Shown piece after piece: positions 49,474-62,663 of a stretch of 64,000 nt of DNA. Made by a program: the position numbers and the translations under genes. The DNA comes from a virus, in IMG/VR virus record IMGVR_UViG_3300037092_000015, positions 11,478 to 75,477 of that record; one strand, written 5' to 3'. How positions within the stretch are numbered: the stretch's first letter is position 1; every line of letters begins with the position of its first letter. The notes beneath the pieces were generated by a model, which was not told the DNA's origin, searched no databases, and saw only the letters and a program-made list of their open reading frames with translations.

Positions 49474-50153
49474 AATTCATCCGGTTCGCAGGCGTTGTCG
49501 AAGTGCCGCTTGTCCTTCTCGACGCCGATAAATTTACGACCAGTCCGCAGGCAGGCGATTCCCGTGCTGCCGCTGCCCATGTATGGGTCTAGCACCGTTG
49601 CCCCGACCGGCACGCCAACTTGTTCCAGACACCACGCCATCAGCGCGACCGGCTTTTGGTTGCTGTGGATTCGCGGCTCGTCCTTTTCCTTCGCTTGCGC
49701 ACCGTTCCAATAGCGCGTTTTCAGCCGCAGAACGCCGTCCTGGTTTGTCCACGCCGTCTCGCCGTCGGCCTGGTCGTTGCTTGGGATGCCTTCGCGCTTG
49801 TCCCATATCAGCCACCGTGAGGAGTTCGGCAGGCGGTTCGCGTAGTGATTCGCGCCCCACAGCACCACAATTGGATAGCCGAGCCACGGGCGCGGGTCGA
49901 ACGGCTTGTCATCGCCCATGATTGCCTCGCCATCAGTGCCGAGTTTCACGCCGCCTTTACGCGCTCCGTGGCAGTAGGCGATTCCATACGGCGGGTCGCT
50001 GATTAGCGCGTCCGCGTCTATCCACGGAAGCTCCAGACAGTCGGCATTGATTAGTCGGCAGTCTCCGATTGTGACCCCTAACAAGTCGCTGCACGCAATG
50101 CCCACCGCGTTCACGGTTTGCTTGCAATCGGGTGCTGTTGGCGCGGTGGTCAT
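49470..50153 (-). CDS. DNA methyltransferase (N6A/N4C, beta class), cassette-borne, slightly truncated at C-terminus
   Basis: SDPPYG, HSNQKP, DPYMGSGSTG. Confidence 0.9.
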   Translation of the reverse strand: MTTAPTAPDCKQTVNAVGIACSDLLGVTIGDCRLINADCLELPWIDADALISDPPYGIAYCHGARKGGVKLGTDGEAIMGDDKPFDPRPWLGYPIVVLWGANHYANRLPNSSRWLIWDKREGIPSNDQADGETAWTNQDGVLRLKTRYWNGAQAKEKDEPRIHSNQKPVALMAWCLEQVGVPVGATVLDPYMGSGSTGIACLRTGRKFIGVEKDKRHFDNACEPDEL

Positions 50154-52653: not shown

Positions 52654-52895
52654 AGCATTTCTAAGTCATCATCTGCGCACCGGCGCGAACAGTATTCTTT
52701 CCACCACGGCAGCCACAGCGGCACAATGGCCCGGTGGCAGTTCTTGCCTGGCACCCACGCCTTTGGGTCGCCTTTGTAGCTCACCCAGCTTACAGTCCAA
52801 CGCGGCCAGCCACCCCAGTAAGGACGCCCGCACATCATGCACCATTGCAGTGGAATCCACCCAATGTATCGCCGCCAGTAGTATCGCCACTTCAC
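52650..52895 (-). CDS. Trp/Cys-rich hypothetical protein
   Basis: CMMCG...YCSRRC. Confidence 0.5.
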   Translation of the reverse strand: MKWRYYWRRYIGWIPLQWCMMCGRPYWGGWPRWTVSWVSYKGDPKAWVPGKNCHRAIVPLWLPWWKEYCSRRCADDDLEML

Positions 52896-53113
52896 TGCGG
52901 CACCTCCATTCGCCTATCCTTCACGAACCGCTGCTCCCACTTGCTAAGCCCCGCCAGGAACGTAGCCCTGTATTGCGAGTCTAGTTCGTCGTGCGTCTTC
53001 CTCAACTGCACCAGCTTGTTCCGTTCGTAATCTGGGTTTGTGACCTCATACCCGCCGCCACACCCGCCGCGGTTGCCGCCTCGCGCCCGGCTGGAATTTG
53101 CAATGGTGCTCAT
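52892..53113 (-). CDS. Hypothetical protein
   Basis: Coupled ORF. Confidence 0.45.
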   Translation of the reverse strand: MSTIANSSRARGGNRGGCGGGYEVTNPDYERNKLVQLRKTHDELDSQYRATFLAGLSKWEQRFVKDRRMEVPQ

Positions 53114-53124
53114 TGTTTTGCTGT

Positions 53125-53445
53125 GATTGAATGCACGCGCCGGGAAGTGCTCAGGCGTCGTATTTCACGGAGCGGGAGCCGGTGCCCAGGATATTCCCAA
53201 CAGCCTAATATTTGAGAAACATCCTGTCCCGGGCCGTGTCTGCGTCCAACCCCGCTAAGAGCGGACAGATTAGACCGCGTGCATCTGTTCCACGCTAAGG
53301 AAGCCTTTCCCGAATTGCTGTGCGTTAATTCGCTCATGCGGAAGACTGGGGACCAGACCCGTTTAAGTGAGGGCTTCTTGCGCTCTGGCGCGTGTTCGCG
53401 TGATAAATTGTTAGTCGGTCCGGCTCGCGACCCGGCAGGAAGCAT
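53125..53445 (-). ncRNA. Candidate structured RNA
   Basis: ATGCACGCG (53131-53139) pairs with CGCGTGCAT (53276-53284); CAGGAUGUU/AAUAUCCUG; further hairpins; overlapping ORFs look non-protein-like. Confidence 0.4.
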
Positions 53446-53554
53446 CTCAACTTCCTAATCTCTGCATTCTCCGCAGCCTCCATTGCTTGCAGCTTGCGAT
53501 TCAACGCTACAGCCTTCTTTCTTCGGCTTCTAGGTGTGCTGCTCATAGCATCTC

Positions 53555-54095
53555 AGGGTTGCATCAGGTTTCTCGCCTTACACCCTGTTGATCCCTACTC
53601 AAACGGGAGCCAAGCAGCACGCGGCCACTGGCAGGCACCAGCCTTCCCGGTTGTTTCAAAAGTCCCATCTCAGTGTCTGTTCGCATCGCGGGCTTTAGCG
53701 AGTCCCGGTAGCAACAAGTACTTTTGAACCTTACAGCATCAAACCAATCGTCTTGCGGACACTTTTTTGGCAACGGTAAGCCATCCCTCCGTGACGGGAT
53801 CATCAAGCTTTCGCGTATGACAACAATCGGACACCCTTCGCACCGCCTTGTGATGTTGGCTGAACTTTCCAGCCGTTCTTGTTGCCGCCAGTCGGGTTTT
53901 ACCCCAACACGGGTTGTGAATTTCATGGCACACGAATGCGCCATCCGAAGCCGTAAGACCAATGTCGAATGCGTTCTCACGGTAGTTTATCGCAGATGGT
54001 TTGATCTGGCCAGTGCCCAACAGGAGCATCACATCTGGCGGTGTGGTCCGCATTATAGCGGCGTGTTCCCCGGCCTTGCGGATCATCGGGGTGAT
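53555..54095 (-). ncRNA. Large ornate non-coding RNA (~540 nt)
   Basis: Three nested long-range helices crossed by a 14-bp pseudoknot; UUCG/GNRA hairpins; directly follows a tRNA-like RNA. Confidence 0.75.
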
Positions 54096-54103
54096 GAAAA
54101 TTG

Positions 54104-54227
54104 TGGACGCGGCGGGAGTCGAACCCGATGCCCTGTGTTGCAAGGGAATTATCCTTGCCGGGGAATAGTTCCAGGTAGTCGGCGCCGACTGCCAAGAATC
54201 CACTGCCGTTGCCACGGCTACGCGCCC
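54104..54227 (-). ncRNA. tRNA-like RNA with G3-U70 pair and enlarged anticodon domain (124 nt)
   Basis: Acceptor GGGCGCG/CGCGUCC-A, D arm GCCG-UGGCAA-CGGC, T arm CGGG-UUCGACU-CCCG. Confidence 0.75.
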
Positions 54228-54413
54228 ATAAAGAAAATCCCCAGCGCGGCCTTTCGGTCGGCTGGGTGCGAATTTCCACTTGGTGTAGTGCTGCTGGAAC
54301 ATGCGAACGTAGGCGTTCATTGCAGTCGCGGTTTGCACAAAGCTTCCGCGAACCAAGCGTAATTCTAATCTTTTTCTCATATTCCTCAAGCCCACTACGG
54401 CTTGAACATTTGA

Positions 54414-54442
54414 AATATACGTGCAGCGCATCCACGGCGCAA
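54414..54442 (-). promoter_or_regulatory. sigma70-type promoter of the RNA locus
   Basis: TTGCGC-17-TATATT with an upstream A tract. Confidence 0.7.
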
Positions 54443-55302
54443 GCCTTTTTTGCAGGATTGTTGAAATGGTTACTCACCGGCACATTCTCCTGTATCCCAA
54501 GCACACCGCCGCCAGCGCCAGCACCCCGCACATCCACTTGAAGCCAAAGAACACCAGCGCGAACTGTGAGAAGAAGCACAGCGTTACTGCCACGCATAGA
54601 CACGCTACCTTCACTTGCCGCCTCCCGCCAGCCGCCGCAACCGCGCCAGCATCCCCGGAGGCGGCTGCTTCGCGGCCACCTGCTTCAACGGCTCCGGCAC
54701 TACCACCCGCTCCTTCACCGGCATTCCAGAAACAACCGCCCGCACCGTAGCCGCGTAAGCCACCTGCCCCTGCAGCTCCGCAGGACGCAAGCTATGCGGC
54801 CAGACCTTAGCGACTATCTTTGGGTTGCGCTTACCCACGGCGCACTTCCTCCGTAGTCGCCTTGCAGCCGTCACTGCCGACGCTGTCCAAAGAAGCGTAG
54901 TGGCCATACGGAAGCTTAGGCACGTCCTTAGCTTTCGTGATAGCCGCTTCCGCACGCTGCCGGGAACTGCGCGGGTCGCTTCCGCATTGCGCCGTGTCGC
55001 TCAGCCGGTGCACCTTTCCTGTAGCCTCTTCGACGTGCCGCAAGTCCGCCTGGAACCGACGCGCCGACTGCATCGCGCTCCACTCCCTGTTGCCTAACGG
55101 GTCATGCTGATAGCTCACGGCAGCCTCCCTCCCCACGCCACCGACGCCAGTGCCAGCCCTGTCACCAGCCCGACCGCGAAGAATAGCAACCCCACGCCCA
55201 GCCCGCCCCGCCGCTGCACCGCAAACGGCCCTAGCAACTCAAGGCGCCGGTAACTCTCGCACTTGTTAGATAGCTTGCACACGTTCATCAAAGTAGCTCC
55301 TT

Positions 55303-56106
55303 CTATTGCATGCCCAGAACTGCCGGGAACTCCTTCATGTTCCAGATCGCGTCAGGCAACCGGCCTTTCATGCCCGGCCTCTCCCCGCCGTCCTGCTTGC
55401 AATAGAACTTAATGCCGTTTCGCCAGCAGAATTTCCAGCATCCAGTTACCCACTCCGGTTCGGACGGCCTGCGCTTTGGCCCGCTCTCGCCACCGTAAAT
55501 AATCCAGTGGACGAAGTCCCACCCCGTCCAGTCTATGCTCGACAGCGCGGGTTCGTAGCTGACGAATTTGACCGCGGCGGGAATGGCCTTGAATGCCTCC
55601 CGGCGTTCGTCGGCCCGCTTCTGGTCCTCGACGCTGACTCCAATCCAGACGTTTTCAAGGTAAAATTTGCCTTCCGATTGGGCATCCAAACAGCGCATGG
55701 CAATGTCAGCCCCCAGCACATCGACCCGCATGATTTCCACCATCCTGTGCGCCCACAGGTCAATGCGTTTAGTCAGCAGCAGCCAATCCAGATTCGGAGT
55801 CTGCCGAATCAGGTCTAAGAACTCACCCAACCACTCGACCGGCGCTTGCGGGTCAAGCCAGTCCATGAGCGACGGGAACATCCGGGGCCGCTCCGCCGCG
55901 CCTTCCGCCTTTCGGTTGAGATTCCGCGCCATTTCCCAAAAGCCCTTGCTTCGGACTCGCTGGGATTTGTCGCCCCAACCAGCCCAACCGCGCTTCAAGG
56001 TCATCTCGCGAGCGTAGCAGTGGGCACAGCCGGGGCTGACCTCTGTGCAACCGAACCACGGACTGCCCGTACTGGACGCCCAGCTTATCTTTGTAGTTTC
56101 GCTCAC
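55303..56106 (-). CDS. DUF5131 (phage Gp37/Gp68) family protein
   Basis: TKISWA...GCTEVSPGCAHCYA, LLTKR, NVWIGVSVEDQ, SYEPAL, GGESGP. Confidence 0.9.
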   Translation of the reverse strand: MSETTKISWASSTGSPWFGCTEVSPGCAHCYAREMTLKRGWAGWGDKSQRVRSKGFWEMARNLNRKAEGAAERPRMFPSLMDWLDPQAPVEWLGEFLDLIRQTPNLDWLLLTKRIDLWAHRMVEIMRVDVLGADIAMRCLDAQSEGKFYLENVWIGVSVEDQKRADERREAFKAIPAAVKFVSYEPALSSIDWTGWDFVHWIIYGGESGPKRRPSEPEWVTGCWKFCWRNGIKFYCKQDGGERPGMKGRLPDAIWNMKEFPAVLGMQ

Positions 56107-56305
56107 GGATTGTTCCTTCCGCCGCTCGGCTCCGGTCGCTGCTGCTGTGCTTCCGCCGCTTTCACGCCCGTCATTGTAGCCGGACGCCGATCAGTTGCAA
56201 TAACTATTTGCGCGACGCCTGCCACGCACAGGTCCGCGTTTCGCTCGTCGAACGCACCCGCCTGCGTCGCTTCCATCGCAGCCTGGCAGTCGCGGCTGGC
56301 CTGGC

Positions 56306-61795: not shown

Positions 61796-61981
61796 TTACT
61801 TGCAGTGAGCCATGAACTCCGCCCGAACCTCCGGCTCTAGGAACACGCCGGACAGTGCACAGGTCACCATCTCTGCCCGCTGCTTCATAACCGCCAACCT
61901 TACGAAGATGGACGGCTCCCCAGCCCTGGCGCCTTCGCCTTGGATGCTGTAGAACAGTTCTGAAACGCGTAGTATTCTCAT
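61796..61981 (-). pseudogene. queE'-'folE deletion fusion remnant
   Basis: VSELFYSIQGEGARAGEPSIFVRLA (QueE N-terminus, cut before CxxxCxxC) joined to VMKQRAEMVTCALSGVFLEPEVRAEF (FolE-like C-terminus). Confidence 0.8.
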
Positions 61982-62376
61982 GGCTCCCCGTATCTCGCGC
62001 AGCTTGTGCACGTTTCATCAATCTCCACTGCCGCCAGAAGCGCGTGCGGCCCTAGCTTACCCGACGGGCCGAACTGCCCTACCAGTCTGCCATAGAGCCA
62101 CGTTGCAACCGCCTCACTTGTCGGCCTGTCCGTCGCCAGCGTTTCGTTGAGAAACCTGTGGTCCAAGTAGCCGTCCACCAACGGCTCCAGCACCGCCTTT
62201 AAGTCGCCGTAGTCCACCAGCATCCCGGCCTTCGGTCCGTCGCGGTGAAGCTCGCTGCCACGCACAACAACCCGACCTTTCCATGAATGTCCATGCAACC
62301 TCGCGCAAGGTCCGTCGTGGCCTACCAACACGTGCGCCGCCTCGAACTTAAACTCTTTTGTGATTGTGAATGGCAT
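61978..62376 (-). CDS. queD: 6-carboxytetrahydropterin synthase
   Basis: KEFKFEAAH...CARLHGHSW...GMLVDY...LDHRFLN...PTSE...ETCTS. Confidence 0.93.
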   Translation of the reverse strand: MPFTITKEFKFEAAHVLVGHDGPCARLHGHSWKGRVVVRGSELHRDGPKAGMLVDYGDLKAVLEPLVDGYLDHRFLNETLATDRPTSEAVATWLYGRLVGQFGPSGKLGPHALLAAVEIDETCTSCARYGEP

Positions 62377-62381
62377 AGCGG

Positions 62382-62663
62382 TTAAACCTTCTTCACCTTC
62401 GTTTGTATGTTCAGCTCGTTGCTGAATTGATGCCACACATCCACTGGCTTGAGACCTAGTTTTGCCTCTCCCATCTCGTCAAGCACGCCATGCGACATCT
62501 CTTCTGCGTCTTGCAACGAGAGCGAAATGCTTTTGTGCGTCTTTGGAATGGTGATGTGAAGCCCTTGCGTTTCGATGTGATGCCCGTCGTCGCGTGTGTA
62601 ACTTTTCACTTGGACCGTTTTGCCGGTGCGGGTTGTTCGAGTGTATTCTTTTACTGCGCTCAT
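62382..62663 (-). CDS. Small protein with VKEYTRTTRTGKTVQVKSYTR motif
   Basis: 93 aa, downstream of a promoter motif. Confidence 0.65.
   Translation of the reverse strand: MSAVKEYTRTTRTGKTVQVKSYTRDDGHHIETQGLHITIPKTHKSISLSLQDAEEMSHGVLDEMGEAKLGLKPVDVWHQFSNELNIQTKVKKV

Follow-up and report, generated by a model that had tools for sequence, protein, structure and literature searches.

Does a gap between the genes of a phage hold the gene for a large non-coding RNA and, if so, is that RNA of a known kind? The question is raised by the stretch at 53555-54095, where the initial annotation had proposed an ornate, pseudoknotted RNA on the minus strand. The window analyzed here comprises 64 kb out of a 75,477-base virus record. 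The record contains a large terminase and a portal gene, and the same phage encodes helicases and several DNA methylases. Nearly all sequencing runs in which the stretch was detected are peat metagenomes. All convincing genes nearby are carried by the minus strand, and the codon-usage score together with an ORF check delimits a gap of ~1.36 kb without a convincing gene (53114-54473), in which the stretch lies. The codon-usage score is negative over 53100-53950 and weakly positive up to ~54500. In the order of minus-strand transcription, the parts of this region are as follows:

54474-54614, minus strand: 46-aa strongly hydrophobic ORF, the last convincing gene before the gap
53555-54095, minus strand: the RNA of the initial annotation, its limits taken as putative outer limits
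53114-53554, minus strand: non-coding tail with a negative codon score, before the gene at 52892-53113
52892-53113, minus strand: flanking gene on the 3' side of the gap, the next convincing gene

The GTG start of the 46-aa ORF overlaps the stop of the preceding gene (GTGA). Within the tail, the ORFs 53334-53546 and 53110-53445 matched no family, and a single RNA-library contig was found (53189-53355). As anchors for related loci, the adjacent 269-aa protein and a DUF5131 protein retrieved no IMG/VR loci, and a TerL search of GTDB genomes found no prophage. A DNA contig from another peat sample (X3) joins 55388 to 56135; the 746 nt that it skips hold most of the DUF5131 gene, and the contig may come from a strain that lacks it. 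Further along, at 61978-62436 on the minus strand, lies a QueD/PTPS gene (PF01242, E 2e-31). QueD belongs to the 7-deazaguanine (queuosine precursor) pathway, through which some phages modify their own DNA.

Conservation at the nucleotide level

An exhaustive phmmer search with the 138-aa ORF at 53564-53980 recovered as relatives three singletons from other metagenomes, P0002, P0003, and P0004 (E 5e-9 to 1.4e-4). Logan assemblies are the source of P0003 and P0004, whose longest contigs measure 22,866 and 75,066 bases, respectively, and P0002 comes from another assembly catalogue (SRC, the ERR1035437 assembly). Their ORFs contain 12-14% Arg and 3-6% Cys and thus resemble the window ORF, which has 14.5% Arg and 4.3% Cys versus 4.8% and 1.4% in the real proteins of the phage. 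A fourth match, P0005 (E 4e-4), was discarded as spurious, being a tandem-repeat protein.

In tblastn, P0002 aligned with 54034-53834 without gaps at 57% identity (E 1e-20), and this alignment crosses two stop codons of the window, a UGA and a UAA. P0003 matched 53923-53615 and P0004 matched 53890-53606. Furthermore, the P0003 piece APVEHRTSSKICD matches the block at 53997-54043 (called the hub below) in a frame different from that of the 103-residue main block of P0003, with a spacer between piece and main block of 57 nt in P0003 versus 65 nt in the window. The NSQP block of P0004 is out of phase too, with 12 nt versus 20 nt in the window. Similarity between P0003 and P0004 themselves is confined to one block of 26 residues, 21 of them alike, and near-identical blocks alternate with segments of variable length across the relatives. 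Since stop codons are crossed and 8-nt indels break the frame, the conservation acts at the nucleotide level, over the following part:

53606-54034, minus strand: part conserved at the nucleotide level in three other metagenome contigs (phmmer, tblastn, frame-breaking indels)

The element is very probably real, non-coding, and conserved. The neighboring 269-aa protein has no relatives, whereas the element has three. No relative of the stretch was recovered by distant blastn against GenBank phages and PLSDB plasmids, by nhmmer and blastn on 41 TerL-related IMG/VR loci, or by BLAST against the full length of five related virus records. Searches of IMG/VR with degenerate core patterns and with the ORF alignment, as well as tblastn of P0003 and P0004 against phages, were likewise negative. 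A 20-mer of the hub had two matches in JGI metagenome contigs, which extended to at most 25 nt in total and were set aside as chance. The approach may be reusable: spurious, oddly composed ORFs are searched in protein catalogues, and stops and frame-breaking indels then reveal nucleotide conservation, which could aid the study of elements beyond the reach of DNA searches.

It is important to consider whether the stretch encodes a protein after all, in the 138-aa minus-strand ORF or in the plus-strand ORF 53724-54362 (212 aa), whose wobble positions coincide with the minus frame. The resemblance of the 138-aa ORF to three database ORFs, the gap-free alignment of P0003 over 103 residues, and the fact that the plus-strand ORF stays open through most of the conserved part speak for it. 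On the contrary, stop codons fall within a conserved block, the ORF has an unusual Arg/Cys-rich composition without a family match, and only 26 residues are common to P0003 and P0004. The plus-strand ORF crosses the tRNA mimic described below, has a strongly negative codon score, lacks relatives, and leaves conserved blocks 2 and 3 outside. The 8-nt difference breaks all frames on both strands, so the plus-strand ORF is also excluded. No frame was kept open and in phase among the homologues, given the two stops and the 8-nt indels. Pfam and PHROG yielded no family for any ORF overlapping 53555-54095, and neither a 230-aa nor the 212-aa ORF had relatives among 5.8 billion protein clusters. The protein reading is thus largely refuted already, and we give it hardly any credence. 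Consequently, the non-coding nature proposed initially holds: the codon score is negative or weak, the overlapping ORFs are familyless, and the conserved blocks are out of frame.

Known RNA families were searched as well. Rfam 15 gave no hit at the gathering score over the whole window. With E values up to 10 on a 1.7-kb region and on 566 nt (53540-54105), GOLLD, ROOL, group I and II introns, and RNase P were all absent; the sole hit inside the stretch was Ocean-VII, at 13.4 bits versus a gathering score of 53.5. The RNA is thus neither GOLLD nor ROOL by Rfam, in agreement with the initial annotation, which could assign it to neither.

Local stems and a conserved core domain

The ORFs of the three relatives were back-translated codon by codon onto the window, and all 480 stems of at least 5 bp were scored by whether the forced substitutions were compatible with pairing or not. 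Back-translation fixes no third codon positions and some alignments are weak, so that the outcome is a hint and not a covariation test; a shifted-partner control over all stems gave too small a difference to use. The modules that emerged from the alignments and the scoring are these:

53951-53982, minus strand: hairpin CCGUGAGA/UCUUACGG, in a segment of variable length
53925-53944, minus strand: hairpin AUGGCGCA-UUCG-UGUGCCAU, with a compensatory change in P0002
53891-53908, minus strand: hairpin GUUGGG-GUAAAA-CCCGAC, scored on the back-translated homologues
53819-53886, minus strand: core domain closed by GGCAACAA/UUGUUGUC, the most conserved module
53834-53852, minus strand: near-invariant 19-nt block CACAAGGCGGUGCGAAGGG inside the core domain (residues TRRCEG kept in all homologues, as TSRCEG in P0004)
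53677-53720, minus strand: conserved block 2 ('CY..SLKP.MR.DT'), with the second UGCGAA, in the window and P0003 and partly in P0004
53606-53632, minus strand: conserved block 3 (SGRVLL), including the 3' strand of helix H2, kept in P0003 and P0004

The closing stem GGCAACAA/UUGUUGUC was the best of the 480, with five two-sided compatible, eight one-sided, and one impossible change in 26 cells. The domain that it closes contains the one part common to P0003 and P0004 (the 21/26 residues), and the ACAUC/GGUGU stem flanking CACAAGGCGGUGCGAAGGG shows an A-U pair that has likely become G-C in 3/3 relatives. In P0002, the closest relative, residues 45-104 (equivalent to positions 53902-53804 of the window) correspond to a tandem duplication of the core domain, with a unit of ~99 nt and copies that have already diverged (18/27 residues alike). 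The two most conserved blocks each contain the hexamer UGCGAA, at 53843-53838 and 53686-53681 on the minus strand, which could serve as a binding site or represent a loop motif present twice.

Compensatory change also fits the local hairpins. For CCGUGAGA/UCUUACGG, P0002 has two two-sided compatible changes and no impossible pair. For AUGGCGCA/UGUGCCAU, the basal A-U pair is G-C in P0002, with six pairs kept and the loop-closing pair lost. In the 15 cells of the GUUGGG/CCCGAC stem, three changes are two-sided and compatible and none creates an impossible pair, and the outcome for UUCAAAAGU/ACUUUUGAA on the back-translated homologues was mixed. Length variation among the relatives coincides with these predicted hairpins. 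P0003 is 8 nt shorter over 53988-53924, the span of the CCGUGAGA/UCUUACGG and AUGGCGCA/UGUGCCAU hairpins; as read from its residues, it appears to lack most of the former and to be ~15 nt longer at the latter (53925-53944). In P0004, the interval from 53911 to 53890, the region of the GUUGGG hairpin, is shortened by 8 nt. The GGCAAC/GUUGCC arms were also considered as an integron attC site, a reading rejected because, on inspection of the sequence, the core-site consensus does not fit.

Long-range helices and folding statistics

The initial annotation had drawn three nested long-range helices crossed by a two-armed pseudoknot:

54025-54017 with 53591-53583, minus strand: helix UCCUGUUGG/UCAACAGGG, motif found
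54015-54009 with 53632-53626, minus strand: helix H2, CACUGGC/GCCAGUG, motif found
54005-53997 with 53746-53738, minus strand: helix H3, AUCAAACCA/UGGUUUGAU, motif found
54043-54037 with 53847-53841, minus strand: pseudoknot arm CACCGCC/GGCGGUG, motif found
54033-54027 with 53855-53849, minus strand: pseudoknot arm UGUGAUG/CAUCACA, motif found
53997-54043, minus strand: hub formed by the 5' strands of H1-H3 and of the pseudoknot, an arrangement at chance level

All nine motif pairs named there occur once, on the minus strand, where they had been placed, the four local stems among them included, and the crossing topology matches the description. The architecture built on them fared differently. 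The minimum free energy of the 541-nt RNA was -185.5 kcal/mol versus -182.9 +/- 6.6 for dinucleotide shuffles (z -0.39), so that folding below the energy of shuffled sequence, the generic sign of a structured RNA, was not seen for the whole stretch; the plus strand gave z -1.07. Among 150-nt windows of the minus strand, the lowest z (-2.8) was found where they overlap the tRNA-like element, and inside the large RNA z reached -1.8 at best. Perfect complementary 7-, 8-, and 9-mers numbered 15, 5, and 2 versus 9.4, 2.2, and 0.7 in shuffles (p 0.11-0.18), these counts were equalled in 19-21% of other windows of the same genome, and counts of 6- to 9-mers as a whole lay within the range of shuffles and other genome windows. 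A hub, defined as three nested helices totalling at least 25 bp with one strand set inside 32 nt, appeared in 25% of shuffles and in 30% of other genome windows.

The homologues point in the same direction: the local helices GGCAACAA/UUGUUGUC, AUGGCGCA/UGUGCCAU, and CCGUGAGA/UCUUACGG fit compensatory change, whereas the long-range ones do not. On a parsimonious reading of P0003, H2 keeps 4/7 pairs and H3 4/9, and P0002 has an impossible pair in the middle of the pseudoknot arm UGUGAUG/CAUCACA. The sequence of the hub block is retained in P0002 and, weakly, in P0003, but its pairings are not maintained. Thus, the named helices are real in the sequence but are no evidence for a fold, and the specific ornate, pseudoknotted architecture as drawn is improbable.

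A tRNA mimic upstream

Directly upstream of the large RNA, and on the same strand, lies a second RNA-like element:

54101-54227, minus strand: tmRNA-like tRNA mimic (RF00023, 23.1 bits, E 6e-7, gathering score 47)

Its 127 nt comprise a 7-bp acceptor stem with G3:U70 and a T arm, and CCA is not encoded. ARAGORN called neither a tRNA nor a tmRNA here and found no true tRNA in the window. A homologue is present in an unrelated complete 57-kb IMG/VR phage (L068, 5761-5885, minus strand). Both mimics have the 5' strand GGGCGCG, an identical 23-nt T-arm/acceptor 3' end, and the UAAUUCCCUUG hairpin. In L068, the mimic stands alone in a gap of ~300 nt between small genes, without the large RNA and without shared neighbor genes. 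Since the mimic occurs there without the large RNA, the two are separable modules, and from these sequences the mimic seems to be an independent module that is itself mobile. Reading the residues in the N-terminal parts of P0003 and P0004 revealed no trace of the mimic, and a mini tRNA-mimic pattern had no match in GTDB genomes.

Occurrence in RNA libraries and candidate promoters

In six peat metatranscriptome runs, 10-32% of the words sampled from 52900-54700 were present, and contigs from three of them jointly cover the 53645-54391 region. The contigs of run X15 span 53645-53780 and 53886-54391 at a depth of 10-13, X16 covers 53913-54387, and X17 covers 54105-54335. This evidence consists of assembled contigs at depth 3-13, which carry neither strand, ends, nor level, and carry-over of DNA is possible. 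The best-covered part is 53886-54391, whereas 53555-53886 is thinly covered, and the contigs bridge the junction of the mimic and the large RNA at 54100. In the rest of the 8 kb compared, the hits of X15 and X16 amount to a single contig (54903-55164) plus two short, partial matches around 50000-50119, and one DNA run covers 28/30 bins of the same 8 kb; the metatranscriptome runs were chosen for containing the stretch, and the uncovered parts of the 8 kb were not counted as evidence.

Two sites upstream of the mimic resemble promoters:

54414-54442, minus strand: candidate sigma-70-type promoter TTGCGC-17 nt-TATATT, read from the sequence, predicted start ~54407
54362-54389, minus strand: second promoter-like site TTGAGG-16 nt-TAGAAT (consensus scan, 9/12 matches)

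The former was not flagged by the promoter scan; RNA-library contigs of two studies end at 54391 and 54387, near its predicted start, which is a weak hint. The latter cannot be the sole start, since RNA contigs extend upstream of it. A perfect TATAAT is also found at 54050-54055 on the minus strand, ~45 nt from the start of the large RNA, where it occupies the loop of a small hairpin (CCGC-UAUAAU-GCGG); it lacks a good -35 box and was unflagged by the promoter scan. Regarding variation, the X15 contig misses 9 nt at 54337, within the leader that precedes the tRNA mimic, the X16 contig has C>T at 54300, and no difference is listed for 53555-54095 in the four runs compared.

Alternative explanations

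Nucleotide conservation does not separate RNA from DNA function, and the stretch could be a conserved non-coding element without an elaborate RNA fold, i.e., a leader or UTR, a regulator of the downstream small genes, or a site acting as DNA, for instance an origin of replication or a platform for protein binding. Structure is not in excess, the promoter/terminator scan found no terminator around the stretch or between it and the downstream genes, and replication genes lie within ~5-10 kb. Against these points, iterons, an AT-rich tract, and repeats are all absent from the stretch, its segments of variable length fall on hairpins, and two-sided changes are compatible with several of the stems. 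Moreover, the stretch is present in RNA libraries and is co-oriented with the RNA gene directly upstream. We consider an explanation of this type unlikely, though it merits consideration.

Alternatively, the stretch could be a non-coding module that is selfish or mobile and passes from phage to unrelated phage, for example a degenerate intron, an element carrying a ribozyme, or some other insertion. This would account for an element conserved where its neighbors are not: the element has relatives and the flanking proteins have none, the core is tandemly duplicated in P0002, and TerL relatives are without the element. Nevertheless, group I and II introns and ribozyme families remained unmatched even at E values up to 10. 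Neither terminal repeats, a target duplication, nor a second copy in the genome was found, and the region has no repeat elsewhere in the genome of the kind sought for a diversity-generating retroelement or retron. No reverse transcriptase or homing endonuclease is adjacent (a GIY-YIG-like gene is ~59 kb distant), and no reverse transcriptase or RNA-handling enzyme was seen among the proteins scanned, which were part of the ORFs. Such a module is improbable to us. Functionless, decaying spacer DNA, in which the similarity to the three ORFs would be residual common descent, would be in line with the lack of a structural signal and the few relatives. This reading is more improbable still, because near-identical blocks (the 19-nt core and the 21/26 residues of P0003 and P0004) stand beside unalignable segments while the neighboring proteins have diverged past recognition, which argues for selection on the blocks.

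A candidate new class of large phage RNA

The best reading, to which we assign a probability of roughly 0.6, is that the stretch is the gene for a large functional structured non-coding RNA of a new class. Of the suggestion that the RNA may represent a new class, the non-coding, conserved, RNA-library-represented, and Rfam-less character stands, and the fold as drawn does not. The gene includes at least 54034-53606 and plausibly ~54100-53560. In the mechanism that we propose, minus-strand transcription would begin from the promoter near 54414-54442 and yield, in order, a leader, a mimic with alanine identity (54227-54101), and the large RNA. Host RNase P would act at the 5' end of the mimic and an RNase Z/RNase E type of cut at its 3' end, freeing the 5' end of the large RNA. 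The latter would consist of conserved blocks linked by hairpins of variable length, with the domain closed by GGCAACAA/UUGUUGUC (53886-53819) at its center, displaying the near-invariant CACAAGGCGGUGCGAAGGG. By analogy with GOLLD and ROOL, it would most likely serve during infection as a structured scaffold or as a decoy, binding a macromolecule of the host or the phage.

Several observations count against this reading: the helix content is at chance level, a thermodynamic signal is absent, and the relatives are few (three). The element is also absent from the 41 TerL-related loci and the five related records, no terminator was found, and the mimic is not linked to the large RNA in the 57-kb phage. 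The fullest version of the proposal is accordingly put forward as tentative and on balance doubtful, namely, that a new class of large phage RNAs, akin in kind to GOLLD and ROOL and unrelated in sequence, has its first member in this element, with a co-transcribed mimic cut by tRNA-processing enzymes, a conserved and duplicable core, and a scaffold or decoy role directed at the host translation/tRNA machinery during infection. Few large, structured, protein-free phage RNAs are known, and the RNA would, if the proposal is true, offer a fresh subject for structural work.

Comparison with known systems

ROOL (Rumen-Originating, Ornate, Large) is a non-coding RNA of several hundred nt found in phages and prophages, often near tRNA islands, whose protein partner and function are not known (bioRxiv 10.1101/2024.12.08.627333). 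The candidate is likewise a large phage-encoded non-coding RNA near a tRNA-type element, on a phage contig with terminase and portal genes. It differs in that it misses the Rfam ROOL model even at E values up to 10 and adjoins a single tmRNA-like mimic instead of a tRNA island.

With tmRNA, the upstream mimic shares the acceptor stem, the T arm, and G3:U70. Unlike tmRNA, its tRNA-like domain is self-closed within 127 nt and is the only part that RF00023 aligns, and ARAGORN detects neither a tmRNA nor a tag frame, nor a permuted version. In addition, the large RNA (53540-54105) scores against no tmRNA model, and the mimic occurs alone elsewhere. A tRNA-shaped module joined to a longer non-coding RNA is also found in MALAT1-mascRNA and in the tRNA-miRNA transcripts of gammaherpesviruses, where tRNA-processing enzymes define one end of the partner RNA. 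These systems are eukaryotic or belong to eukaryotic viruses, whereas in the phage candidate the corresponding processing is our proposal.

GOLLD, an RNA of phages and prophages, lies beside tRNAs, which are sometimes covalently linked in a linker region; it has a conserved and a variable part and is often longer than 800 nt. GOLLD and ROOL have recently been found to form RNA-only cages, the function of which is not known. The candidate has no Rfam match or sequence resemblance to GOLLD, is ~430-540 nt in length versus often more than 800 nt, and, compared with a GOLLD of that size with its conserved 3' region, has a conserved part of ~430 nt and a gap of ~990 nt downstream of the mimic. It resembles GOLLD in having a tRNA-like domain directly upstream on the same strand. 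If our reading is true, it would be a further, unrelated class beside a tRNA-shaped element and would support the view that phages pair large RNAs with tRNA-like modules.
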